From: Actinomycetota bacterium
GTDB lineage: Bacteria; Actinomycetota; AC-67
Assembly: GCA_046565595.1 (NCBI GenBank)
Contig: JBKHYG010000100.1
Location: forward strand, 20,838-84,837
Direction of reading: 5' to 3'
DNA: 64,000 nucleotides
A program made the position numbers and the translations under genes. The first letter of the stretch is position 1; each line of letters begins with the position of its first letter. The notes below the pieces were generated by a model that ran no database searches, had not been told where the DNA came from, and saw only the letters and a list, made by a program, of their open reading frames with translations. Below are positions 1 to 22,760 of this stretch, piece by piece.

Positions 1-1109
1 GTCTTGTCAGGCATGGCCTCACCGGTGACCGGGTCCGGAACGAACTCGCGAAGCGGTGTCTGCAGGCCGCCGACCATCCCGGAGAAATAGATCGCGGGGG
101 CCCCAGTCTCCTCTTCGAGGGCGAGGCGAGTGCCATGCGGAAAGTCACTAGAGATGTACGGGTTGTCAGAGCCCTGCGCCTCGGGATGGTTGTTCCAATT
201 CACGATGGTCCCGATCGTGGAGCCGTCTGAGACACGCACGAACTGGGCGGTCGGAACACGAGGATCCTTCACGCTCGGAGGCCGTGAGTCACGGATGGCC
301 ATGGGCTGCTCGCCGGTCGCGAGTTTCACTTCTGCGGCTTCACGGCTGGTCCAAGCCTCGTAGACAGCATCGATGATCTGGGAACGGATGAACGCTTGGT
401 AGGCGGGGAACTTGCCGTCGGTGTTCAGGAAGAGCTGACCCCAGTAGCCCATCGTGTCGACACCCTCATGGGTGTGAGTCGAACTGACGACGAGTTCGTC
501 GATGGGCATTTCGGGGTAGCGCTTCTTCATCTCGTCGCGCGCACGCCGCACCTCGATGTTGAACAGCCCGACCACATCGAGCGAGACCATCGCAACGCTG
601 TCATCACCGAGTTCCATGACGACCGCACGAGCCCATGTGTCATCGGCGACACCGAGGGTGCAGGTGCTTCCGAAACCGGCGTTGGCCCATAGCCCGTCGA
701 ACTTGCCGAGCGAACTCGGGTCGCCAACGATGGTGACACCGCGGACCTCGCGGATGCCGGTCATGAGGCCGTCGCCGGTGTGATTCCACGCCTGGTCGAT
801 GTGGGGTTCGACCATCTCGCCGCGCGGAGGGTCGCCATCTAGGACCGGTTCCACATTCCGGTTGGTCGCACCGCCGTAGCAACCATCTCCATCCAGGTCC
901 TCGAAGGGCTCGCCCCAGATGCCGGTGGTCGGCTGCGGCGTGAAGTAGTCGGCCCATTCCGCCGGCGGTTCGCCCTGTGGCGTGATCGCGCGGACGCCGA
1001 AACCAACTCGGAAGGTCGGGTCGTCGGCCTGGCTCGCGGTGAATGCTCCGACCGCGGTCAGCAGCATCGCGAACAGTAAGACGCGTGTAGTCGGTCGGAT
1101 GTTCGGCAT
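1..1109 (-). CDS. Neutral/alkaline ceramidase-like secreted hydrolase (partial; C-terminal part lies beyond window start)
   Basis: Own translation of minus frame starting at ATG 1109: MPNIRPTTRVLLFAMLLTAVGAFTASQADDP (signal peptide), then GFGVRAITP and VVSSTHTHEGVD motifs resembling the neutral ceramidase N-terminal domain; RBS GAAGGAG upstream of the ATG. Absent from ORF track because there is no stop codon inside the window. Confidence 0.55.
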   Translation of the reverse strand, partial: MPNIRPTTRVLLFAMLLTAVGAFTASQADDPTFRVGFGVRAITPQGEPPAEWADYFTPQPTTGIWGEPFEDLDGDGCYGGATNRNVEPVLDGDPPRGEMVEPHIDQAWNHTGDGLMTGIREVRGVTIVGDPSSLGKFDGLWANAGFGSTCTLGVADDTWARAVVMELGDDSVAMVSLDVVGLFNIEVRRARDEMKKRYPEMPIDELVVSSTHTHEGVDTMGYWGQLFLNTDGKFPAYQAFIRSQIIDAVYEAWTSREAAEVKLATGEQPMAIRDSRPPSVKDPRVPTAQFVRVSDGSTIGTIVNWNNHPEAQGSDNPYISSDFPHGTRLALEEETGAPAIYFSGMVGGLQTPLREFVPDPVTGEAMPDK

Positions 1110-1172
1110 GGACTGGCTCCTTCGTGGTGCTTAACCAAGGGTTCTCCACTCGGTGGGCAGTCCCCTGCCGGG

Positions 1173-2489
1173 TCAGGCCATGCGTTCCAGGAAGCCGATC
1201 TGTGCCGTCAGGGCCCGCTCTAGTTCCGCCAGGTCGATGCTCTCGTTGGTCGAGTGGAGTCGAGCCTGCGGGTCGACGCAGCCGGTCAACAGCAAGGACG
1301 CATCGGGGAATGTCTCTGCGAAGGCCGCGACGAACGGGATCGAGCCGCCCATCCCGATGTCGACCGGATCGGTACCCCATGCCGCTCGCATCGCGTCATG
1401 CATGGCCTTGGCTGCGGGTGTAGTCGTATCCACCGTGAAGGAACCGCCCGCAGCACCACGCTTCACGCTGACCTTCGCACCCCACGGCGTATGCGCTTCG
1501 AGGTGCTTCACGAGTTCGTCCAGGGCTCGCGTCGCGTCGTCGCCAGGTGCGATCCGCATCGAAACCTTCGCACGCGCGACGGGAACCAACTGGTTGATCG
1601 CGTCCGCGACGCTAGGCGCATCGATGCCGATGATGCTTACGGCCGGCCTGGTCCACATACGCTCGGTCAGGCTGCCGCTGCCGATCATCTGCACGCCTTC
1701 CAGTACGCCCGCTTCCGCTCGCAGCCGTTGCTCGTCCATGTCGACCGGGCTTGGTTTCCCGATGACACGGTCTCCGACGGTCGGGTTGCCGCTCTCGTCG
1801 TGCAGCGTCGCGAGCAGCCGACAGAGGACCGTCAACGCGTCGGGGATGGCGCCGCCATACACGCCAGAGTGAAGCGCATGATCGAGGGTGCGTACCTCGA
1901 CGACCGCATCGACGAGACCGCGGAGACTCGTGGTCAGGCTTGGCGTTCCAAGCGCCCAGTTGCCAGAGTCGGCGAGAACACAGGCGTCGGCTCGTAGTTC
2001 GTCCGCGTACGCCTCGAGGAAACGAGGCAGGTTCTCGCTGCCAGTCTCCTCCTCGCCCTCGACCAAGATCCGAACGCCGACCGGAGGCTTCGAGTCGTAG
2101 GCGGAGATCGTCGCCCAGTGCGCGATGGCCCCCCATTTGTCGTCGACGGTTCCGCGGCCGTAGAGCCGCCCGTTCCGTTCGGTCGGCTCGAAGGGATCGG
2201 ACTCCCATTCCTCGAGCGGTCCCGGCGGTTGCACATCGTGGTGCGCGTACAGGAGCACCGTCGGGGCACCCTCGGGAGCGGGGACAGAAGCAAGCACGGC
2301 AGGATGTGCTCCATCGATCTCCAGCAGGCGGCTGTCCATGCCCGCAGATGCGTAGAGGTCGCGCAGGTAGTTGGCGCTCGCCCGCACATCCTCTGCGCGG
2401 CCTGGATCTGCACTGACCGACGGGATCTTGACGAGAGCCTCCAGGTGCGCGCGCACCTCGGGCATCAGGTCTGCAGCATCTCTAGGCAT
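1173..2489 (-). CDS. M20 family metallopeptidase (ArgE/DapE/CPG2-like dipeptidase)
   Basis: 438-aa ORF; HHDVQPPG, GRGTVDDKWG, and EGEEETGS metal-binding motifs typical of peptidase M20; alternative start at MPEVRAHL 24 nt downstream. Confidence 0.8.
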   Translation of the reverse strand: MPRDAADLMPEVRAHLEALVKIPSVSADPGRAEDVRASANYLRDLYASAGMDSRLLEIDGAHPAVLASVPAPEGAPTVLLYAHHDVQPPGPLEEWESDPFEPTERNGRLYGRGTVDDKWGAIAHWATISAYDSKPPVGVRILVEGEEETGSENLPRFLEAYADELRADACVLADSGNWALGTPSLTTSLRGLVDAVVEVRTLDHALHSGVYGGAIPDALTVLCRLLATLHDESGNPTVGDRVIGKPSPVDMDEQRLRAEAGVLEGVQMIGSGSLTERMWTRPAVSIIGIDAPSVADAINQLVPVARAKVSMRIAPGDDATRALDELVKHLEAHTPWGAKVSVKRGAAGGSFTVDTTTPAAKAMHDAMRAAWGTDPVDIGMGGSIPFVAAFAETFPDASLLLTGCVDPQARLHSTNESIDLAELERALTAQIGFLERMA

Positions 2490-2559
2490 GCTCGCGAGCC
2501 TAGGCCGGCGTACGAGACCGACGCTGGCCAGATGCCAGACGACTAACCTGAGAGGCTGC

Positions 2560-2632
2560 GGGCCCGTAGCTCAATCGGCAGAGCAGCGGACTTTTAATCC
2601 GACGGTTGGGGGTTCGATTCCCTCCGGGCCTA
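2560..2632 (+). tRNA. tRNA-Lys (anticodon TTT)
   Basis: 73-nt cloverleaf: acceptor GGGCCCG/CGGGCCT (G1-U72 wobble), D stem GCTC/GAGC, anticodon loop CTTTTAA, T arm GGGGG-TTCGATT-CCCTC; one G-A mismatch at base of anticodon stem. Confidence 0.8.
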
Positions 2633-2821
2633 CTCCCACCACTCTTGGGGAAGTTTCCCTTCGATCGCGCGGATGTTGCTGCGTACGCAGCTCGGGCAAG
2701 TGAAGACCGTGCGGCCGTCCTCGAACGAGAACGACCAGCCGTCTGGCATCCCGCCAGGGGCACATTCGGCGCTCAATCCACAGCGCCCGCAATACTTGGT
2801 CTCGCGCTCTTGGTCCGCCAT
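2630..2821 (-). CDS. Small zinc-ribbon protein (two CxxC pairs), hypothetical
   Basis: 63-aa ORF MADQERETKYCGRCGL...TCPSCV; four Cys in CxxC...CxxC arrangement; no strong RBS seen. Confidence 0.4.
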   Translation of the reverse strand: MADQERETKYCGRCGLSAECAPGGMPDGWSFSFEDGRTVFTCPSCVRSNIRAIEGKLPQEWWE

Positions 2822-2855
2822 GCGCCACAGTCTCGCAGACGCGTACCCTCAAGGC

Positions 2856-3815
2856 ATGCGGCTACTGATACTCGGAGGAACCGGATTCCTCGGTTACCAC
2901 ACGACACGCAGCGCACTCGACGCTGGGCATGAGGTTTCCCTGTTCAACCGAGGCAAGTCGCGCCCCGATGAGTTCGGTGAGGTCGAACGGCTCATCGGAG
3001 ATCGGGTCGCCGGAGACATAGCAGCGCTCGAAGCCGTGGACGGGCTCGACGCTGTGATCGATTGCACCGGCTACCTGCCTTCGCAGGTGAAGGCTTCCGC
3101 GCAACTGCTGCGCGCGCGCTCCCGCCGGTACCTGTTCGTATCGACCATCTCGGTCTATGACATGGGATCGGCCGAGGTTCCGATCACCGAGGATGCCCCG
3201 CTCGCGCAGATGCCTGATGGTGTCGACGAGTCGAAGGTGTCTCCGGAGACCTACGGGCCTCTCAAGGTTCGATGCGAACAGGAGGCTCGAGACGCTTTCG
3301 GCAACGACGCGGTGATCGTTCGCCCGGGGCTGATCGTTGGCCCTCACGATCCGACCGACCGCTTCACCTACTGGGTGCGGCGAGGACGCGACGGAGGGAA
3401 GATCCTCGCGCCGGGTTCTCCGCAGGATCGCGTGCAGGTGATCGACGGCCGCGACCTGGGCGCGTGGATGGTCGACCTCGCACTGGGGGAGATCTCGGGG
3501 GTATTCAATGGAGTTGCTCCGCCCGAAACCTTCGGCACGATGCTCGAGGCGTGCGTGGTCGCACCCGATGCCGAGGTGCGATGGATCCCCAGCGAAGTCC
3601 TGATCGAAGCCGGAGTCGAGCCATGGCAGGATCTGCCGCTCTGGGTCGGAGATGCTGAACTGTTCGTGAGCGATGCTCGGGCATCGGCCGCTGGCCTCGT
3701 GACCCGGCCGCTACGGGAGACGATCGCGGATACCCGCGAGTGGGATGAGCAACGCGGCCTGCCAGAACTCAAGGCTGGCATCTCGCGGGAGCGCGAGGCG
3801 GAACTACTTTCCTGA
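2856..3815 (+). CDS. NAD(P)-dependent epimerase/dehydratase family (SDR) protein
   Basis: Start moved to ATG 2856 (MRLLILGGTGFLGYH Rossmann GxxGxxG at N-terminus); track ORF from 2673 is an upstream extension overlapping the convergent small ORF. Confidence 0.75.
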   Translation: MRLLILGGTGFLGYHTTRSALDAGHEVSLFNRGKSRPDEFGEVERLIGDRVAGDIAALEAVDGLDAVIDCTGYLPSQVKASAQLLRARSRRYLFVSTISVYDMGSAEVPITEDAPLAQMPDGVDESKVSPETYGPLKVRCEQEARDAFGNDAVIVRPGLIVGPHDPTDRFTYWVRRGRDGGKILAPGSPQDRVQVIDGRDLGAWMVDLALGEISGVFNGVAPPETFGTMLEACVVAPDAEVRWIPSEVLIEAGVEPWQDLPLWVGDAELFVSDARASAAGLVTRPLRETIADTREWDEQRGLPELKAGISREREAELLS

Positions 3816-3856: not shown

Positions 3857-6166
3857 ATGAGAAACTTCCGCCGCGTCACCGTTGGAACGGTCTCCGTCGT
3901 CGGTCTGACGCTGACCATGCTGTCGAGCCCGGTCGTGTCGACGCCGCTCGGCGTCCAGGTTCCGGTCGAGCCGACCGCGATCGTGATCGACGCGATCCGT
4001 GATGCGCTCGGCCAGTCACGCTGGCTCGGTATCGACGGCCATGTGCATTCCGATCACAGCCACGATGCTGGGTTCTTCCATCAGCAGGAGAAGACACCAG
4101 AGAGCCACGACACCTTCGTTCGTGACCAGATCGACGAAGCCGAACGCGTAGGCGAAGACCTGGTGACCCTGACCGATCACCGCACCTACGACCAGGCCTA
4201 CGACCCCGAATACAGGTCGAGCCAAGCAACGCTGCTGGATGGCGAAGAGTGGGGCGGCTATCCGCACGCGACCGCGTGGGGGATCGTCGAGACACTCGTG
4301 CAGGGACCAGATCTCGGCGACTGCGGCGTGACGCTGGCTGCTCGAGAAGTGCGAGCACAGGACGGGATCTTCGGCATAGCTCACCCCGAGGACGGTCAAC
4401 GGCCTTGCGTGAGCGAGGAGACGATCAAAGACATCCCCATCGACCATCTCGAAGCGTTCCGCTGGCCCCACACGAACTTCTGGGCCAGCAACATCGCCGC
4501 CGATAACCGAGTGGTTCCCGTCACGGGCTCCGACAATCATTTCCGCCAGTTGCATGGGACCGAAGCTGGGGTCGGCGGGAACTCGACGCTGATCCTGGCC
4601 GAGGACGCTACCCAGGCCGCCATCGTCGAAGCGGTCCGCGCGGGGCGGGTCGCGTCTGTCACTAGGATGCTCGGACCTACGCTGTCGACGCTGCTCGACG
4701 CTGACGGAGACGGCGAGTTCGAAACCCTGACCGGCGGCTGGTCCGAACCGACCGGGCCTACGGTGCGGGTGGCCTTCGAGGCCAGGAACGCGCAAGGTCT
4801 GCGGTTGCAGGTGTTGGACGATCAGGCGATGGTCGCAGAGGAACTGGTGACGCTGCCGGTGCAGACCTTCGTGTTCGATCTGCCCTCTGATCGTCCTTTC
4901 TGGCGGGGCCAATTGGATGCGAGCCCCACCGACCGCATCACCGGCGGAGTCCTACACGACTACCTGTCCTACATCGACTCGCTGAGGTTGATCAGTTCGC
5001 CGGTGTACCTCTCACCCGAGTCGCTTCGGGACCCTGGCTCCACGCCCTTGATCACCGACGCTGCATACGCTGGCTTCCCGGACACGGCGATCAGCGGCAC
5101 CGACACCCTGCTGGTGACCCAGGAGCGAGCCGCTGGCACCTATCGGATCGTGCTTCGGAATATCACGACCGGGACCGAGCAGGTCTTGAGCAGTGACGAT
5201 CAGGACGCGCGAGAACCGGCCATAGCAGCTCGAGGATCCAAGGTCGTCGTCGCCTACACCGATCGATCGCCAACCGCGCGCGCAGGCCGGATCTGGCTGC
5301 GGATCAGCGACGACGGGGGTGCGACCTTCCCGGATGCCGAAGGCCTCTTGATCAACAAGCGGCTGGGAGCCATGCCTGATGTCGCCATCTCGGAGGACGG
5401 CGACATACATGTCGTCTGGTCTTCGATGGAGGATGGTTTCAAGATCCGTCACAAGATCGCAGGCTCTGATGACTCGACCTTGCTGTCGTCTGCGGTGTCC
5501 AGACTGCTGGGACGGGCCTCCTACTCTCCCTACCAAGAGATCCGTCATGTGCCCGCCGCGATCGACCCCACCATCGCGATCGAGGGTGACGATGTGGTGG
5601 TCGCGTGGAGCGACAACCGCGAGGATGTCACACCGCTGCGTAACGGCACTCCAGATGATTGGGGCATCTATGTGGCGAGTTCCTCGGACTCCGGAGGCAC
5701 CTGGTCCCAGGATGCGCGGATCTCGCCTCGGCACGACAAGCGCGGGCCTGATCCGGATGACCCCGAACGCATGGAGGGCAACCCCGCCAAACATCCCACA
5801 CTCGCCTACCTAGACGGGCGGTTCGTTGCTGCTTGGAGTGACGCGAACGGAAGCGGAAGTCGCATCCGGTCGTTGCGTTCCACCGACGGTGGGGCAACCT
5901 GGAGCGGGCTGCTAGAGATCCCGACTCCCTCGAACGAGATGGCCTACCGCCCGGCCCTGGGACAGATCGCGGGCATGACGGTCGTGGCGTGGCAGCAGAG
6001 CGATGGGAAACGCTGGCTGCTTCACGCCGCCGATGTTGACTCTGCAGAGATCGGGGCGGCCTTCTCGCTCGGACCGTTCGCAGGTTTCCCGAGCCTCGCC
6101 GGCGACACGATCTTCTACACCGCGTCAGGCGCTGATCGTTACGGGATCGCTACGACCCAGTTCTGA
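3857..6166 (+). CDS. Secreted PHP-domain phosphoesterase fused to BNR/Asp-box repeat (sialidase-like beta-propeller) domain
   Basis: Signal peptide MRNFRRVTVGTVSVVGLTLTMLSSPVVS; PHP-type His clusters IDGHVHSDHSHDAG, TLTDHRTY, GIAHPEDG, TGSDNHF; C-terminal half has repeated SxDxGxTW/F Asp-boxes (SDDGGATF, SSDSGGTW, STDGGATW). Confidence 0.6.
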   Translation: MRNFRRVTVGTVSVVGLTLTMLSSPVVSTPLGVQVPVEPTAIVIDAIRDALGQSRWLGIDGHVHSDHSHDAGFFHQQEKTPESHDTFVRDQIDEAERVGEDLVTLTDHRTYDQAYDPEYRSSQATLLDGEEWGGYPHATAWGIVETLVQGPDLGDCGVTLAAREVRAQDGIFGIAHPEDGQRPCVSEETIKDIPIDHLEAFRWPHTNFWASNIAADNRVVPVTGSDNHFRQLHGTEAGVGGNSTLILAEDATQAAIVEAVRAGRVASVTRMLGPTLSTLLDADGDGEFETLTGGWSEPTGPTVRVAFEARNAQGLRLQVLDDQAMVAEELVTLPVQTFVFDLPSDRPFWRGQLDASPTDRITGGVLHDYLSYIDSLRLISSPVYLSPESLRDPGSTPLITDAAYAGFPDTAISGTDTLLVTQERAAGTYRIVLRNITTGTEQVLSSDDQDAREPAIAARGSKVVVAYTDRSPTARAGRIWLRISDDGGATFPDAEGLLINKRLGAMPDVAISEDGDIHVVWSSMEDGFKIRHKIAGSDDSTLLSSAVSRLLGRASYSPYQEIRHVPAAIDPTIAIEGDDVVVAWSDNREDVTPLRNGTPDDWGIYVASSSDSGGTWSQDARISPRHDKRGPDPDDPERMEGNPAKHPTLAYLDGRFVAAWSDANGSGSRIRSLRSTDGGATWSGLLEIPTPSNEMAYRPALGQIAGMTVVAWQQSDGKRWLLHAADVDSAEIGAAFSLGPFAGFPSLAGDTIFYTASGADRYGIATTQF

Positions 6167-16092: not shown

Positions 16093-17070
16093 ATGGCAGA
16101 GATGACTCTCGCGCAAGCGTTGAACGCAGGGCTGCGTGATGCGATGCGCGACGATGACAAGGTCATGGTCATGGGCGAGGATGTCGGCACTTCCGGCGGC
16201 GTCTTCCGCATCACCGACGGCCTGCAGAAAGAGTTCGGCGAGGATCGCGTCCGAGACACTCCGCTCGCGGAATCCGGCATCGTAGGGACAGCTGTCGGGC
16301 TGGCGATCTACGGCTACAAGCCGGTCTGCGAGATGCAGTTCGACGGATTCACCTATCCAGCGTTCGAGCAGATAGTGAGCCATTGCGCGAAGATGCGTTC
16401 GCGGACGATGGGCAAACTGAACCTGCCGATCGTGATCCGCATCCCCTACGGCGGCGGCATCGGCGCGGTCGAACATCACTCAGAATCTCCCGAGGCATAC
16501 TTCACCCACACCGCAGGCTTGAAGGTCGTGACGCCCTCGACGCCGACCGACGGCTACTACCTGATGCGTCAAGCGATCGAAGACCCAGATCCTGTGATCT
16601 TCCTCGAGCCGAAACGGCGTTACTGGATCAAGGAAGATGTCTCGCTGCCGGTGACCGACGCGCCACCCATGGGCAAGGCGCGGGTGGTCCGCGAAGGTGC
16701 GGACTGCACGCTGATCAGTTACGGGCCGTCGATGCGGACCGTCGCCGAAGCAGCAGAAGAAGCTGCGAAGGATGGCGTCAACTGCGAGGTGCTGGACCTG
16801 CGGTCGCTGCGTCCCTGCGACTGGGAGACGGTCATGGAATCGGTCAAGAAGACCGGGCGCGCGGTGGTCATCACCGAAGCGAATGTGAGTGGTTCGGTCG
16901 CCGCTGAGGTCGCGGCCCGCATCCAGGAAGCTGATTTCCTGTCGCTGCACGCGCCGGTGTTGCGCGTAGGTGGGTATGACATCCCGTATCCCCCAGCCAA
17001 GGTCGAGGACCTGTACCTGCCCGACATCGATAAGGTTCTAGACGCCGTCGACTCGGTGCTGAACTACTAG
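16093..17070 (+). CDS. bkdB: Branched-chain alpha-keto acid dehydrogenase E1 beta subunit
   Basis: Start at ATG 16093 (MAEMTLAQALNAGLRDAM...), 5 nt after E1-alpha stop; transketolase-like pyrimidine-binding and C-terminal domains (VMGEDVG..GGVF, EPKRRYW). Confidence 0.85.
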   Translation: MAEMTLAQALNAGLRDAMRDDDKVMVMGEDVGTSGGVFRITDGLQKEFGEDRVRDTPLAESGIVGTAVGLAIYGYKPVCEMQFDGFTYPAFEQIVSHCAKMRSRTMGKLNLPIVIRIPYGGGIGAVEHHSESPEAYFTHTAGLKVVTPSTPTDGYYLMRQAIEDPDPVIFLEPKRRYWIKEDVSLPVTDAPPMGKARVVREGADCTLISYGPSMRTVAEAAEEAAKDGVNCEVLDLRSLRPCDWETVMESVKKTGRAVVITEANVSGSVAAEVAARIQEADFLSLHAPVLRVGGYDIPYPPAKVEDLYLPDIDKVLDAVDSVLNY

Positions 17071-17081
17071 GAGAGCCAACC

Positions 17082-18503
17082 ATGGCGGAGCGTTCTTTCA
17101 AGGTACCCGATCTGGGTGAGGGACTCACCGAGGCCGAGATCGTCAACTGGCTCGTGAAGGTCGGCGATTCGGTCGAGTTGAACCAGCCCATCGTCGAGGT
17201 CGAGACCGAGAAGGCGATCGTCGAGGTCCCCTCACCGTTCGAAGGCAAGATCAAGGAACTCAAGGGCGAGGTTGGCGAGAAGGTTGAGGTCGGTTCGGTC
17301 TTCGTGATCTTCGAGGTCGAGGATTCTGACGACGACGATTCGCCGACCGAGGCTGGGAGCCGCAAGGAAGTGTTGGTCGGTTACGGACCCGAAGAGGGCG
17401 GCGGCAAGCGACGCAAGCAGCGCAAGATCGGCCGCCGCAAAGGCTCAGGTGACTCCGGTGAGTCGGGCGACTCCTCCGACTCATCCGATGCGGCTGGCTC
17501 GTCGACCACGACCGCGAAGCAGGAGACCAAGGAGGCGCCTGCCCCGGCCAAGAAGCGTGCTCACTCTAGCAACGGATCGGCGAAGGCTCTTGCAACCCCG
17601 CCGGTGCGGAAGATGGCTCGAGAACTCGGCGTTGATATCGACTCGCTGACCGGTTCAGGCCCCGACGGCCGAGTCACCCGTGAGGATGTCGAAGCCGCCG
17701 CGAAGGCGCCCGCGTCTGACGCCGCCTCTGCCCCCGCCGCTGCCTCGGCATCCTCGGCGCCCGCTGGCTCGACGGCTGCTCGCCGCCGGGTGGCCGATGG
17801 GCCCGAGGAGGAGAGGATCCCGGTGCGCGCGATCCGCCGTTCGATCGCCGAGAAGATGGTGCGCGCCAAACACACGATCCCTCATGTCACCGAGTGGCTC
17901 GAGGTGGATGCGACCGAACTCATGGCTGTGCGGGCGCAACTGAAGAGCGCACCCGAGGCGAAGGACATCAAGATCAGTCCGCTCGCGATCATCGCGAAGG
18001 CGTTCACGGCTGCGCTGCGCTCGTATCCGCTGATCAACGCTTCCTGGGATGACGACAGGACCGAGATCGTCATCCATCACCCGGTGCATCTCGGCATCGC
18101 AACCGATACCGATCGAGGCCTGCTGGTACCGGTCATCAAGGATGCCGACCAGCTCTCGATCCTCGAGATCTCGCAGGAGACTTCACGGTTGGCGGAACTG
18201 TCGCGCTCGGGGAAGATCGGGCCTGCGGATCTGACCGGTTCGACCGTCACCATCACGAACATCGGATCGTTCGGGATGCAGTCGGGGACGCCGATCATCA
18301 ACCATCCCGAGGCAGCCATCCTGGCGCCGGGAGCGATCGTCTCCAAGCCCTGGGTGGTCGATGGCAAGATCGAGGTTCGTCAGATCATGACGCTCGCGCT
18401 GGCGTTCGATCACCGCATGATCGACGGAGCGTATGCGGGACGGTTCCTTCGCCACCTGGGCGACCTGATCGAGTCACCTGCGCGACTCCTAGCTGCTCTC
18501 TGA
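17082..18503 (+). CDS. bkdC: Dihydrolipoamide acyltransferase E2 component (lipoyl domain, E3-binding domain, catalytic domain)
   Basis: N-terminal lipoyl domain (VEVETEKAIVEVPSPFEG, lipoyl-Lys), Ala/Pro-rich linkers, PSBD (ATPPVRKMARELGVDIDSLTGSGPDGRVTREDV), C-terminal CAT-like domain with DHRMIDGA catalytic His. Confidence 0.85.
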   Translation: MAERSFKVPDLGEGLTEAEIVNWLVKVGDSVELNQPIVEVETEKAIVEVPSPFEGKIKELKGEVGEKVEVGSVFVIFEVEDSDDDDSPTEAGSRKEVLVGYGPEEGGGKRRKQRKIGRRKGSGDSGESGDSSDSSDAAGSSTTTAKQETKEAPAPAKKRAHSSNGSAKALATPPVRKMARELGVDIDSLTGSGPDGRVTREDVEAAAKAPASDAASAPAAASASSAPAGSTAARRRVADGPEEERIPVRAIRRSIAEKMVRAKHTIPHVTEWLEVDATELMAVRAQLKSAPEAKDIKISPLAIIAKAFTAALRSYPLINASWDDDRTEIVIHHPVHLGIATDTDRGLLVPVIKDADQLSILEISQETSRLAELSRSGKIGPADLTGSTVTITNIGSFGMQSGTPIINHPEAAILAPGAIVSKPWVVDGKIEVRQIMTLALAFDHRMIDGAYAGRFLRHLGDLIESPARLLAAL

Positions 18504-18588
18504 TCGAGCCTGCCCTTTCTCCGGGTCCTCCGACTTCCAGGTCCTGCCAAGGGTTCCTTATGTCCCATCATGCGGCTATAAAGGTGGC

Positions 18589-19539
18589 ATGCCCAAGCAG
18601 GGATGGTTCAGCGAACTCTTCGTCGAGTTCCATCCTCGCCTCGTCTCCTATCTGAAGCGGTTCGTCAACGCAGAGGACGCTGCGGACATCTCGATGCAGG
18701 TGTTCGTCCGCCTGCTCGAGCAACCCGGGTTCGATGATTCGCGGCCCCCTTGGCCATACTTGAGGACCATCGCGCGCAATCTCGCGTACGACCATCTTCG
18801 CCGAGAGAGGGCAACTCCGATGGTAAGGCACGGAGTCTCTGAGGTCGATCCCGGGGGGCTGGTTGCAGACCGCCTCGATCTTCGACGGGCGATGGCGCAC
18901 CTTCCAGAGTCCGAGGCTTCGGTGTTGCGGTCGGTCGCCGACGGCTACAAGCCTGCAGAGATCGCGCGCACACTCGGCCGAACCCCGCATGCGGTTACAT
19001 GCATGCTGTCTCGGACACGCCTGAAGCTGCGTGCGCTGCTCGAGCCGATCACCATCCCGCTGGTCGCTTGGTGGTACCGCCGCCGACCGGGCACGGCTGG
19101 TGGTCCCGTACCTGGGGTCGAGTTCGCCGTGACCGCGCTGGTCGTCGCCGGTGCTGTCGTCATCGCCCCGCTCTTGCCGGGCGTTGACCCTCCGAGTGTT
19201 CGGCTGATCGAAGCCTCAAGTTCGGGTCCTGTGATGCCAGATGCCATGCCTCGACGGATCAACAGCACCTCAGCAGCCAAGAACTCCACCATCGCCGCCG
19301 AACCCGGCGAGCAGCCGGGCCATGATCCGATCGTCATCACTCAGCGTCACGAATTCGAGAAGGACGAGAAGGCGATGATGCCACGACGCATCTGGTTCGA
19401 GTACTGGGTCCGGGACGGCGAAGGCAACAACATCTACGGATCTGAGTTCTGGACCGGATGTGAGACCGGCGAACCTGCAGAGGGATATCCCACGATCGAG
19501 TGGTACGAGATCATCCCCTACTTCGAGTCGACCTGTTAG
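18589..19539 (+). CDS. ECF-type sigma-70 family sigma factor fused to a transmembrane helix and a ~120-aa extracytoplasmic C-terminal domain
   Basis: Region 2 (FVRLLEQPGFDDSRPPWPYLRTIARNLAYDHLRRE) and region 4 HTH (LPESEASVLRSVADGYKPAEIARTLGRTPHAVTCMLSRTRLKLRAL); then TM segment FAVTALVVAGAVVIAPLL and C-terminal domain ending ...GYPTIEWYEIIPYFESTC with no recognizable motif; no separate anti-sigma gene downstream. Confidence 0.7.
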   Translation: MPKQGWFSELFVEFHPRLVSYLKRFVNAEDAADISMQVFVRLLEQPGFDDSRPPWPYLRTIARNLAYDHLRRERATPMVRHGVSEVDPGGLVADRLDLRRAMAHLPESEASVLRSVADGYKPAEIARTLGRTPHAVTCMLSRTRLKLRALLEPITIPLVAWWYRRRPGTAGGPVPGVEFAVTALVVAGAVVIAPLLPGVDPPSVRLIEASSSGPVMPDAMPRRINSTSAAKNSTIAAEPGEQPGHDPIVITQRHEFEKDEKAMMPRRIWFEYWVRDGEGNNIYGSEFWTGCETGEPAEGYPTIEWYEIIPYFESTC

Positions 19540-19907
19540 ATCCAGGGCAGGACGAGGCCCCAGCAAGCCGAGTAGCTGAGTACATACTCGCATTTCCCGA
19601 CCGGCACCGAGCTGGACAACGGGCCGGGGGGAACGGGGCTACAGCGTCCAGCACCACCCCTACCAAGTAGGGGCACATCCCAAGACGCCGAAACGCAGGG
19701 CGGATAGGCCTCTGCTGGCGTGAAGGAGAGCGATGCCAACATCAGGGAGGCGAGCAAGAACCCGGAATTCCGGGGTTCTGTTCGCCGGCCGCGGCGAACA
19801 GCCCGCCTCCCTGAAGAACGCACCTACAGATAGGTACGAACCAGGGGGCGGAACCTCTCACCGGTTGGCAGGAGAAGTTTCCCGGCAGCAACTCTCTCGG
19901 GCTAGAC

Positions 19908-20010
19908 GCCCGAGAACCAGGCGGCCGGCTAAGAGTGGTGTGGCCCCCGAACCAGCGGCGGCTAAGAGTCGTGTGGGCCCCGAACCAGCGGGCGGCTAAG
20001 AGAAGCTGAC
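19908..20010. repeat. Three tandem imperfect ~34-bp direct repeats; the last copy supplies the final codons and stop of purM
   Basis: GCCCGAGAACCAGGCGGCCGGCTAAGAGTGGTGTGG / CCCCCGAACCAGCGGCGGCTAAGAGTCGTGTGG / GCCCCGAACCAGCGGGCGGCTAAGAGAAGCTGAC; core CCCGA(G)AACCAG(G)CGG..GGCTAAGAG. Confidence 0.7.
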
Positions 20011-21021
20011 GCCGGAGCCAGCGGTCACAGAGCCGACCTGGACGGCGGTCTCGCCGTGTGCGTTCGCGAGCGCCAGTGCGTCGTCCACCCGGTCGGACGG
20101 CACGACGAGCATCATCCCGAGCCCTCGGTTGAAGACTCGCCACGCCTCATCCGGTTCGATCTGGCCAAGCCTCTCTAGGTATCCGAAGATGGGTTCCCGC
20201 TTCCAGGCGGACGGATCGACGCTGGCTCCAAGACCTTCGGGCAGGACCCGGGGCAGGTTGCCAGTTATGCCGCCACCGGTGATGTGCGCAGCCGCATGAG
20301 TCAGGCTTTCTCTGGCCAGCGCCAGCACGGCGGGTGAATGGATGCGACATGGGGTCAGCAGTACCTCGCCAAGCGTGCGAGGCTCAGCCTCATCGAAACG
20401 ATCCTCGAGAACGAGATCATGATCGAGGATGAGTTTGCGGACCAGCGAGTAGCCGTTGGCATGCAGGCCGCTTGAGGCGAAGCCGATGATCGCATCACCT
20501 TCGCGCACCCGGTGCGCACCGAGCCGCGAGTCCTCATCCACGACTCCGACGCAGAAGGTTGCCAGGTCGTACTCGTCGATGTCCATGACACCGGGGTGTT
20601 CCGCCGTTTCGCCTCCGAGCAGAGCAGCGCCAGCCTGCCGGCAGCCTTCCGCGACCCCGGACACCAGGTCGGCGATCTTGCTCGGGATGACCTTCCCGAT
20701 GGCGATGTAGTCGAGGACGAACAGCGGCTCGGCGCCCTCGCAGACGACATCGTCTACGACCATCGCGACCGCGTCGATACCGATCGTGTCATGAACATCC
20801 AGCGTCTGGGCGATGAGCGTCTTCGTGCCTACACCGTCGGTACCTGACACCAGGATCGGCTTGCTCAGGTTCGCGAAACGGCCGTCGAACAGGCCCGCGA
20901 AGCCGCCGAGATCGCCTCGCACCTCTGGTCTGGTGGCCGCGCCGATGCGTTCCTTGATGAGTTCGACCGCACGATCTCCAGCCTCGATCGAGACGCCAGC
21001 CTGCTCGTAGGTGGAACTCAT
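19996..21021 (-). CDS. purM: Phosphoribosylformylglycinamidine cyclo-ligase (AIR synthetase)
   Basis: Start at ATG 21021 (MSSTYEQAGVSIEAGD aligns with canonical PurM N-terminus); AIRS N and C domains throughout. Confidence 0.9.
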   Translation of the reverse strand: MSSTYEQAGVSIEAGDRAVELIKERIGAATRPEVRGDLGGFAGLFDGRFANLSKPILVSGTDGVGTKTLIAQTLDVHDTIGIDAVAMVVDDVVCEGAEPLFVLDYIAIGKVIPSKIADLVSGVAEGCRQAGAALLGGETAEHPGVMDIDEYDLATFCVGVVDEDSRLGAHRVREGDAIIGFASSGLHANGYSLVRKLILDHDLVLEDRFDEAEPRTLGEVLLTPCRIHSPAVLALARESLTHAAAHITGGGITGNLPRVLPEGLGASVDPSAWKREPIFGYLERLGQIEPDEAWRVFNRGLGMMLVVPSDRVDDALALANAHGETAVQVGSVTAGSGVSFS

Positions 21022-21029
21022 CCCACCCC

Positions 21030-22466
21030 TCACACCAGGCGGGGTTGGTCAGGGACCATCTCGAGCACCATCTTCGGATCGACCAACCCGCCAGCGGGAG
21101 GCTCGATCGGATAGATGCCGTCGAAGCATGCCCGGCAGAATCCGGTCGCGGCTTTGCCGGTCGCGCGCACCATCGCCTCAAGGGAGAGGTAGGCGAGCGA
21201 GTCCGCACCGGTGAAGGCGCCGATCTCTTCGACGCTTAAGTCACTAGCGATGAGTTCCTTGCGGGTAGCCATGTCTATCCCGTAGAAGCACGGCCATCTG
21301 ACCGGCGGGCTGGTGATGCGCAGATGCACCTCTGTAGCTCCAGCCTCGCGCAGCAGCTTCACGAGTTGGCGGGTCGTGTTGCCTCGAACGATCGAGTCGT
21401 CCACGACCACCAGACGCTTACCCTTCACCGCGTTTCGCAGCGGATTGAGTTTCAGACGGATGCCGAGCTGGCGCATCGTTTGGGAAGGTTGGATGAAGGT
21501 GCGTCCCACATAACGGTTCTTGACCAGACCGTCGCCGTAGGGGATACCGCTGGCCTCGCTGTAACCGGCTGCCGCGACCGGCCCGGTGTCGGGTACCCCG
21601 ATCACCAGATCCGCCTCGATCGGAGACTCTTCGGCGAGGATCCTGCCCATCTCGCGGCGGGTCTCGTGGACGGTCACACCCTCCAGGATGCTGTCTGGAC
21701 GCGCCAGGTACACATACTCGAAGATGCAGAGTTTCGGGGTCGGCTTGGCGTAGATGTGGCTGGTCAAGCCTTCGGGGCCGATGCCGACGATCTCGCCTGG
21801 TTCGACCTCACGCACGAACTGCGCGCCCATGATGTCCAGCGCGCAGGTCTCGCTGGCGACGACCCAGCCGCCGGCAGGCAGGCGCCCGATCGACAGCGGA
21901 CGCACACCGTGGGGATCGCGGAAAGCCCACAGTTGGCTCTCGTCCATGACGACCATGCTGAAGGCGCCCTTGAGTGTCGGGACGACTTCCAGCAGCGCCT
22001 CTTGAAGGCTCCCGTCATGTTGAGCGAGTAGGCCGCAGACCAGATCCGAGTCGGTGGTCGCGCGCACGCCCCCGAGCCGCTGTTCGCGAAGGCGTTCGGC
22101 CAACTCCAGCGTGTTGGTCAAGTTGCCGTTGTGGCCGAGCGCGATCCCCGAGTCGTTGCGCAAGATCGGCCGGTACGAAGGCTGAGCGTTCTCCCATGTG
22201 CTCGAGCCGGTGGTCGAGTAACGGGTGTGGGCGATGCCGAGACTGCCACGCAGCGCGTTGAGGCTGGATTCGTTGAAGACCTGACTGACCAGACCCGTGT
22301 CCTTGTACACGATGATCTGTTCACCGTCCGAGACAGCCATGCCCGCGGCCTCTTGTCCGCGATGCTGGAGGGCGTAGATACCGAAGTAGAGGAGCTTGGC
22401 GACCTCTTCGTCAGGTGCCCAGATCCCGACGACGCCACATTCTTCCTTGGGAGATTCGACGCCCAC
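21030..22466 (-). CDS. purF: Amidophosphoribosyltransferase
   Basis: N-terminal Ntn Cys after short propeptide (MGVESPKEECGVVGIWA), PRPP-binding motif VVVDDSIVRGNT, C-terminal CFDGIYP. Confidence 0.9.
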   Translation of the reverse strand: MGVESPKEECGVVGIWAPDEEVAKLLYFGIYALQHRGQEAAGMAVSDGEQIIVYKDTGLVSQVFNESSLNALRGSLGIAHTRYSTTGSSTWENAQPSYRPILRNDSGIALGHNGNLTNTLELAERLREQRLGGVRATTDSDLVCGLLAQHDGSLQEALLEVVPTLKGAFSMVVMDESQLWAFRDPHGVRPLSIGRLPAGGWVVASETCALDIMGAQFVREVEPGEIVGIGPEGLTSHIYAKPTPKLCIFEYVYLARPDSILEGVTVHETRREMGRILAEESPIEADLVIGVPDTGPVAAAGYSEASGIPYGDGLVKNRYVGRTFIQPSQTMRQLGIRLKLNPLRNAVKGKRLVVVDDSIVRGNTTRQLVKLLREAGATEVHLRITSPPVRWPCFYGIDMATRKELIASDLSVEEIGAFTGADSLAYLSLEAMVRATGKAATGFCRACFDGIYPIEPPAGGLVDPKMVLEMVPDQPRLV

Positions 22467-22547: not shown

Positions 22548-22760
22548 CTAGAAGACGAGATCCAGCACGAATCCGACGAAAGCTCCGGTCAAGAGCGCGA
22601 CCAGCAGGGGCGTGTATCCGCGGACGAGGCCGATGATCGCTAGGAGCAGGGCCACTACCGCTATAGCCACGATCTGCGGGAGACTCAGCATGAATCCGAG
22701 CAATACCCCGACCAGGAAGCCGACTACGGAGAGCAGATCGCTCTGGGTCCTGACAGCCAC
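22548..22760 (-). CDS. Small membrane protein (two TM helices), hypothetical
   Basis: 70-aa hydrophobic ORF between purF and the HTH/NTase cassette. Confidence 0.45.
   Translation of the reverse strand: MAVRTQSDLLSVVGFLVGVLLGFMLSLPQIVAIAVVALLLAIIGLVRGYTPLLVALLTGAFVGFVLDLVF

Follow-up and report, generated by a model that had tools for sequence, protein, structure and literature searches.

A single-chain, membrane-tethered ECF sigma factor and a convergent mini-protein gene at the purM/E2 junction of an uncultured Actinomycetota bacterium

Sigma factors of the extracytoplasmic function (ECF) group can be fused to membrane-spanning segments within one polypeptide. Here, we report such a gene in a 64,000-nucleotide stretch of Actinomycetota bacterium DNA (GTDB lineage AC-67; GenBank assembly GCA_046565595.1, contig JBKHYG010000100.1, positions 20,838 to 84,837, forward strand; hereafter the window, with all coordinates counted from its first letter). 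The 316-residue protein has an ECF sigma core, a single strongly hydrophobic helix, and a small C-terminal module; it carries no anti-sigma signature, and its conserved segments are under purifying selection. On the opposite strand, a gene missed by automatic annotation encodes a predicted secreted mini-protein, and the two genes occur together, and are absent together, in related loci. We read the pair as an envelope-signalling cassette of two genes, inserted with purM on one side and the E2 gene of a 2-oxoacid dehydrogenase operon on the other; its tethered sigma factor would be released by proteolysis, and we put the probability of this reading at about 0.45. Coordinates of all features are given in Table 1.

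Sigma core and membrane-spanning extension

The Pfam domains Sigma70_r2 (E, 7e-12) and Sigma70_r4_2 (E, 7e-7) both scored above their gathering scores, and the NCBIfam model TIGR02937 (sigma70-ECF) exceeded its own cut-off; no sigma regions beyond these two were detected with Pfam or NCBIfam, and no NCBIfam subfamily or equivalog model reached its cut-off. The sequence shows the expected motifs (DxxxQ in region 2.2, WPYLRTIARNLAYDHLRR in regions 2.3/2.4, and the region 4 helix-turn-helix), and a profile of the protein and one orthologue aligned residues 7 to 150 to the structures of Mycobacterium tuberculosis SigL and SigE. The protein belongs to the ECF (group 4) sigma-70 family. Its sigma core shares at most 37% identity with any other sigma factor in the databases, the nearest relatives being unrelated ECF types, one of which has a ChrR-type neighbour.

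An identical gene (protein P0001) was found in a second, independent assembly (Logan), and a 311-residue orthologue (P0002; 66% identity) is encoded on a contig from a different sample (L001), where the gene order (E1-beta, E2, sigma, a gap, and then purM on the opposite strand) puts it in the same position as in the window. A third orthologue (30% identity; L040, positions 2124..3038, minus strand), also between E2 and purM, surfaced among fetched purM relatives. Its layout comprises sigma-2, sigma-4, the motif LEP..P..R.R, one hydrophobic helix, a variable linker, and a C-terminal module with two cysteines. The L040 gene call starts at GTG, with loss of the first helix of region 2.1; between positions 3038 and 3365 (minus strand), the frame is open further upstream, with no ATG, GTG, or TTG at the expected place. 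This odd start could reflect a non-canonical start codon or an assembly error.

Ratios of nonsynonymous to synonymous substitution (dN/dS) were calculated per segment (Nei-Gojobori method, window versus L001; Table 1). Purifying selection acts on the sigma domains, the juxtamembrane segment, the helix, and the C-terminal module, while substitutions are saturated in the linker that joins sigma-2 to sigma-4 and in the extracytoplasmic linker. These data bear on an artefact that the original prediction had itself named as its refuter, namely, a frameshift of assembly or sequencing that fused an ordinary ECF gene with a membrane anti-sigma gene lying separately downstream of it, and the source sequence is indeed a metagenome-assembled genome. 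We regard such a fusion as excluded, because the layout is kept in three assemblies, the gaps between the orthologues are all in frame (multiples of three), and the conserved segments are under purifying selection (dN/dS below 0.45 in every one). The identical sequence in the independent Logan assembly, the same unbroken frame in two further assemblies, and a distance from sigma-4 to the helix too short for an anti-sigma domain speak against the artefact as well.

The best-conserved part of the protein is the juxtamembrane segment, whose LEP..P..R.R motif is also present in L040. It contains neither cysteine nor histidine and is too short for an anti-sigma domain, only 26 residues lying between sigma-4 and the helix. 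Pfam searches returned no zf-HC2 or other anti-sigma signature at E values of ≤1 on the full protein or of ≤10 on the C-terminal 172 residues; zf-HC2 does score in a contrast protein (P0006). The neighbouring genes encode BCKDH-type E1/E2, PurM, and PurF, and no anti-sigma gene was found within ~3 kb, which bears out the original prediction that no cognate anti-sigma gene adjoins the sigma gene.

The sole strongly hydrophobic stretch, FAVTALVVAGAVVIAPLLP, has a mean Kyte-Doolittle hydropathy of 2.34 over 19 residues (2.03 in P0002 and 1.99 in L040). The predicted arrangement of ECF sigma domains, transmembrane helix, and extracytoplasmic tail in a single chain thereby held, with one helix in each of the three orthologues. 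Its N-terminal flank includes WWYRRR (charges of +3/−1 over 15 residues) and its C-terminal flank is at +1/−2; the RRR is shared by P0002. By the positive-inside rule, this charge bias would place the sigma part in the cytoplasm and the C terminus outside. Within the helix, G188 and APLLP are kept in the two closer of the three orthologues; conserved helix-breaking residues in a transmembrane segment are usual in site-2-protease substrates.

Beyond the helix, the extracytoplasmic part described earlier as a ~120-residue domain is not one domain: a variable linker of ~50 residues is followed by a conserved module of ~66 residues with two conserved cysteines. Eleven module positions are invariant in the three orthologues (D259, E260, E271, V274, G277, G284, E286, W288, C291, E292, and P296), and all three have a second cysteine at or near the C terminus. 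C291 and C316 are the only cysteines of the extension, both lie past the helix, and the module probably carries a disulfide; its fold, tentatively modelled, may be a small three-stranded sheet. The C-terminal part had no Pfam match at E values of ≤10, the module had no relatives in NCBIfam or the Protein Data Bank (PDB), and HMMER, run exhaustively against 1.84 billion cluster representatives with the last 172 residues as query, yielded P0002 as the sole accepted match. A match of an FxYxVxDGxG hairpin to the Ig/cadherin-like repeats of P0013 (3,405 residues) was repeat inflated and was rejected as homology. Translation from an internal methionine, M139, which would yield an independent product exported by Tat or Sec, was considered and dropped as well; this residue falls within the conserved helix-turn-helix of sigma-4, and the idea had no other support.

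Table 1. Positions of the features described, numbered from the first letter of the window
Feature	Coordinates	Strand	Details and basis
−10-like hexamer TATAAA	18577..18582	+	6 nucleotides before ATG; read directly; CATAAT-N6-ATG in L001
Single-chain membrane-tethered ECF sigma gene, 316 residues	18589..19539 (including stop)	+	Open reading frame; identical protein P0001; orthologues P0002 and L040
Sigma-70 region 2, residues 10-75	18616..18813	+	PF04542; 78% identical to P0002; dN/dS 0.23
Sigma-70 region 4 helix-turn-helix, residues 96-147	18874..19029	+	PF08281; dN/dS 0.11
Juxtamembrane segment, residues 151-176 (LEPITIPLVAWWYRRR...)	19039..19116	+	88% identity; dN/dS 0.08
Single transmembrane helix, residues 177-197, predicted N-in/C-out	19117..19179	+	Hydropathy and flank charges; dN/dS 0.42
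Pro/Ser/Ala-rich extracytoplasmic linker, residues 198-250	19180..19338	+	27% identity, in-frame indels (two closer orthologues)
Predicted extracytoplasmic module, residues 251-316 (HEFEKDEK...WFEYWVRDGEGNNIYGSEFWTGCE...IIPYFESTC)	19339..19536	+	82% identity; dN/dS 0.10; two conserved Cys
Unannotated 95-codon gene, GTG start	19536..19823	−	Convergent with sigma gene; stop overlaps sigma stop region by 4 nucleotides
Mature mini-protein, ~56 residues, four invariant Cys (YPPC...RCSPVPP...KCEY...ACW)	19539..19706	−	Three-orthologue alignment
Predicted signal peptide: Arg-rich n-region, h-region GFLLASLMLASLSF, site AEA|Y	19707..19823	−	Three-orthologue alignment; hydropathy
Block of ~93% nucleotide identity with L001: 5' leader and first 33 mini-protein codons	19726..19861	−	Alignment; L001 counterpart 3997-4143
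Three-way-junction RNA: 14-base-pair closing stem and two hairpins; codons 4-27 of mini-protein gene	19742..19814	−	z-score −6.9 in window, −6.2 in L001
Motif GAACCTCTCACCGG, contains ECF −35-like GGAACC	19851..19864	+	Cassette specific
33-nucleotide tandem repeat, 2.6 copies, 91% matches, duplicating purM 3' end (last codons and stop)	19914..20002		Absent from L001

The convergent mini-protein gene and its RNA structure

The sigma and purM stop codons are 456 nucleotides apart. This region had been described as non-coding, a view that no longer stands: its minus strand holds a conserved, unannotated open reading frame of 95 codons together with a conserved RNA structure. The intergenic alignment of the window and L001 has zero indels over 340 nucleotides, the frame is open in L001 as well, and third codon positions hold 48 of the 87 differences within it. 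For mini-protein residues 34 to 95, the proportion of nonsynonymous differences (pN) is 0.26 against a synonymous proportion (pS) of 0.75, and dN/dS for the coding frame is ~0.08 to 0.24, compared with 0.34 to 2.7 for the other five frames, four of which are interrupted by stops. L040 encodes a homologue recognizable at the protein level (...SAHA|YLPC...NLPIVGAGGDDPCSPVPPP...C...C...), convergent to its own sigma gene.

The product matches the features of a Sec-type secreted protein and is predicted to be exported (n-region, h-region, and AxA motif). R2, R6, R7, R11, R13, R14, and the A-x-A-Y-x-P-C junction are invariant in the three orthologues; the h-regions reach Kyte-Doolittle values of 1.9 to 4.0 over 13 residues, and the predicted cleavage motifs are AEA|Y, AVA|Y, and AHA|Y. 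In the mature part, CSPVPP and all four cysteines are invariant. No relatives were found in Pfam, NCBIfam, or the PDB. The gene was left uncalled by the gene finders in the source assemblies, and a word-index homologue search of the protein database with the mini-protein gave zero matches; because even the query itself was missed, the protein is unannotated in the source records.

The start of the gene overlaps a very stable three-way-junction RNA within a block of ~93% nucleotide identity to L001, compared with only 72 to 82% in the flanking coding sequence. An A-U pair is replaced by G-C as a compensatory change, and the variants in three helices pair as G-U on the minus strand, where the plus strand would have mismatches (C-A). 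Synonymous change is suppressed in this region (pS, 0.23 versus 0.75). A degenerate copy persists in L039, a relative without the cassette (positions ~1975-2045; covarying stem; z-score, −1.4). An Rfam search of positions 17000 to 21500 gave no match at E values of ≤1, the best at E values of ≤10 being RT-13 (18.5 bits against a threshold of 69.1), and scans of GTDB genomes and JGI metagenomes for exact 20-mers and 18-mers of the RNA core returned chance matches only.

Positions 19540 to 19995 might instead be read as a non-coding structured RNA (~330 nucleotides, minus strand), with the 95-codon frame a by-product of high G+C content. The folds are very stable across the whole region (z-scores of −4.75 and −4.87) as well as in the core, 12 to 14 pairs are compensatory, the core is strongly conserved in nucleotide sequence, and a frame overlooked by gene finders and lacking a good ribosome-binding site would suit an RNA. 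We nevertheless hold this to be very improbable. Substitutions are frame specific, as described above; the L040 homologue keeps the four cysteines, CSPVPP, and AxA|Y even though neither the nucleotide sequence nor the junction RNA is conserved there; and coding and RNA structure are compatible within the first 33 codons.

The motif GAACCTCTCACCGG is cassette specific. Its 11-mer core was found only in the three cassette-bearing loci among 43 loci, always on the sigma-sense strand (L001, 4126-4136, plus strand; L040, 3107-3117, minus strand); it is downstream of the sigma gene in the window and L001 and upstream of it in L040. The hexamer GGTTCC, common to the window and L001, was rejected as a promoter element, its spacing not being conserved and the hexamer being over-represented across the whole window. 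The consensus scan upstream of the sigma gene yielded no complete promoter of sigma-70 type; the −10-like hexamer there is a weak candidate for a leaderless-mRNA promoter of the sigma gene.

Cassette behaviour and release from the membrane

Contigs of the closest PurM relatives were fetched for comparison of the purM/E2 junction. The junction is empty in L038 (PurM identity, 90%), with the stop codons 2 nucleotides apart, and in L039 (PurM identity, 86%) is a ~170-nucleotide spacer in which nothing survives but a decayed leader and three-way junction. A restriction-modification system occupies it on the contig of P0019 (PurM, 72%), a PemK toxin-antitoxin pair in L041 (PurM, 70%), and a histidine kinase in L043, L044, and L045 (PurM, 62 to 64%). 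The sigma and mini-protein genes occur together in 3 of 3 sigma loci (the window, L001, and L040), and both are missing from the junction in all seven relatives. This joint presence and loss, with the presence seen in three related loci, is our main argument for one functional unit, and it is suggestive, not conclusive.

The junction is a variable accessory-gene hotspot in this lineage. A tandem repeat duplicating the purM 3' end may be a rearrangement scar at the hotspot; besides this duplication, no terminal inverted or direct repeats of a mobile element were found around the cassette. The purF-purM spacer also takes up genes, of FitA-like/PIN toxin-antitoxin type, in L038 and L039. Two further observations concern neighbouring sequence. 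The P0019 contig (JGI 3300041965) encodes, at positions 277-1440 (minus strand) and ~4 kb from purM, a further ECF protein of 387 residues with Sigma70_r2, Sigma70_r4_2, and a long extension. In the window, a 70-residue, almost wholly hydrophobic open reading frame with two predicted helices lies downstream of purF (22548-22760, minus strand); a 70-residue gene is called at the matching place in L038, and the window frame is probably a genuine gene with no relation to the cassette.

Such a hotspot raises the question of whether the mini-protein belongs with the sigma factor at all. The sigma protein might be a self-contained tethered sensor, with the mini-protein gene functionally unrelated to it (a passenger of the hotspot, or a target of regulation instead of the source of a ligand); the junction gathers unrelated genes in relatives, the two genes are convergent, and their co-occurrence comes from three related loci only. 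We give this account little credence, as the adjacency is kept from 66% down to 30% sigma identity, both genes were lost together in L038 and L039, and both products are predicted to be extracytoplasmic and have conserved cysteines.

In the two-gene cassette that we favour, the sigma factor's own anchor would keep it inactive at the membrane, and the mini-protein would be exported to the same compartment as the outside module. That module would sense a signal from the envelope, most probably through binding or loss of the mini-protein, whose presence, absence, or redox state would be the most economical cue. Two successive cuts, the first outside the membrane and the second inside it, as with anti-sigma factors and the IutY hybrid, would free the cytoplasmic sigma domain for RNA polymerase. 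The conserved juxtamembrane segment and the glycine and proline residues of the helix in the two closer orthologues are compatible with release, a fit and not a proof. Proteolytic release has been demonstrated for IutY and proposed for ECF48, ECF52, and ECF53 (PMC8999054, PMC5411451, PMC5826349).

The main rival to release is that the sigma factor is active while tethered, in the manner of ToxR, CadC, and TcpP, with RNA polymerase and promoter DNA recruited to the membrane without proteolysis and the module acting by conformation or oligomerisation. No anti-sigma domain masks sigma-2 or sigma-4, the short and highly conserved stretch from sigma-4 to the helix would suit a defined membrane geometry, and with a direct fusion there would be no released sigma factor to carry a degron. 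Against this rival, no membrane-bound sigma factor is known to be active. A 26-residue tether would, moreover, press the holoenzyme (~400 kDa) and DNA against the membrane, and for the membrane-fused ECFs described so far, release has been either proposed or shown (PMC8999054). On balance, we consider activity in the tethered state unlikely.

Several results weigh against the cassette with proteolytic release. Only three family members were found in ~15 billion proteins, so that the co-occurrence amounts to three loci sharing ancestry, and the convergent arrangement of the two genes means that they are not co-transcribed. The check for a self-directed promoter suggested in the original prediction came out negative: the canonical ECF promoter GGAAC-N16-17-CGT is absent from positions 18504 to 18588, and the analysis identified neither a promoter nor a regulon. 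The cassette has no linked protease gene, and a sigma factor cleaved at site 2 without an anti-sigma domain would keep a hydrophobic tail, which could lead to degradation of the whole sigma factor. The N-terminal flank of the L040 helix has no basic residues and no RRR signature. AlphaFold2, also suggested for the C-terminal domain, gave no usable fold, with low confidence (predicted local distance difference test scores of 41 for the full protein on a two-sequence alignment and 56 for the last 80 residues). Finally, the mini-protein start in the window has no clear ribosome-binding site and is buried in the RNA structure.

A bolder form of the cassette reading would make the ECF sigma factor its own transmembrane receptor without an anti-sigma domain, the co-inherited, secreted, and disulfide-bonded mini-protein its ligand or co-regulator (an autocrine or peptide-sensing cassette), and the three-way-junction RNA, by burying the start region, a gate on mini-protein translation. 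As a whole, this proposal seems to us improbable.

Relation to known systems and significance

C-terminal extensions are the second most common mode of ECF regulation, known from 19 groups, and membrane-spanning ones occur in ECF263 (five or seven helices), in ECF48, ECF52, and ECF53 (ZAS plus at least one helix), and in IutY (PMC7826278, PMC8999054). The architecture had been called rare, which is correct, although as a class it has already been described (ECF48/52/53, IutY, and ECF263; PMC8999054, PMC7826278, PMC5826349).

The window protein resembles ECF52 (SCO4117 of Streptomyces coelicolor), ECF48, and ECF53 in combining an actinobacterial ECF core, a transmembrane segment, a proline-rich linker, and an outside domain in one chain (PMC5826349, PMC8999054), with no separate anti-sigma gene. 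In those groups, however, a zinc-finger ZAS domain (PF13490, HxxxCxxC) lies between sigma-4 and the membrane, whereas the window protein has no zf-HC2. The carbohydrate-binding module of ECF52 was not detected here (no Pfam match at E values of ≤10), the aromatic-rich composition being at most suggestive; the extension is ~166 residues, compared with up to 400 in these groups, and is accompanied by a conserved gene for a predicted secreted partner.

With IutY of Pseudomonas putida (ECF243), the protein shares an N-terminal ECF sigma, one transmembrane segment, and an extracytoplasmic C terminus in one chain. The sigma part of IutY is released by Prc and RseP, as demonstrated experimentally (PMC8999054, PMC5411451). 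Its FecR-type anti-sigma part and its TonB-dependent receptor of the Gram-negative outer membrane were, in contrast, undetected here, by Pfam and among the neighbours E2, purM, and purF, respectively.

As in ECF263 and in ECF41, ECF42, ECF56, and ECF238, a C-terminal extension takes the place of an anti-sigma factor (PMC7826278). ECF263 has five or seven transmembrane helices, unlike the single one here. The extensions of ECF41, ECF42, ECF56, and ECF238 are cytoplasmic (SnoaL, TPR, and Cys-rich metal sites), whereas the cysteines of the window protein would lie outside the membrane; in particular, the short Cys-rich extension of ECF238/CorE-like proteins follows directly on sigma-4, while C291 and C316 come after the transmembrane helix. 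In concept, the proposed scheme is like that of RseB/RseA and of TonB-dependent transducers with FecR-type anti-sigma factors, in which an exported protein attaches to the external part of a membrane-spanning regulator and governs whether the site-1 protease can reach it (PMC8103513, PMC11637429). There is no sequence or domain relationship to either pair, and the interaction is only proposed here.

The window protein is of a known kind, an ECF sigma factor with a membrane-spanning extension, and yet not a fusion of the ECF52/48/53 or IutY type; the failure to detect an anti-sigma domain of the ZAS or FecR type sets it apart from these closest groups. What would be new is a minimal tethered ECF without an anti-sigma domain, with an orphan outside module and a gene for a putative dedicated secreted partner.

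The family is restricted to a small number of uncultured Actinomycetota, which limits the practical impact. In each of the three assemblies examined, automatic annotation overlooked both a conserved gene for a small, predicted secreted protein and a conserved RNA structure. Fusion of an ECF sigma factor to a membrane-spanning extension represents the least understood mode of control in a very large regulator family. IutY alone is known to have a demonstrated mechanism, and every described case keeps an anti-sigma domain. With its sigma core, 26-residue tether, one helix, and small outside module, the minimal cassette offers a test of whether tethering alone silences a sigma factor and of how such a factor is switched on.

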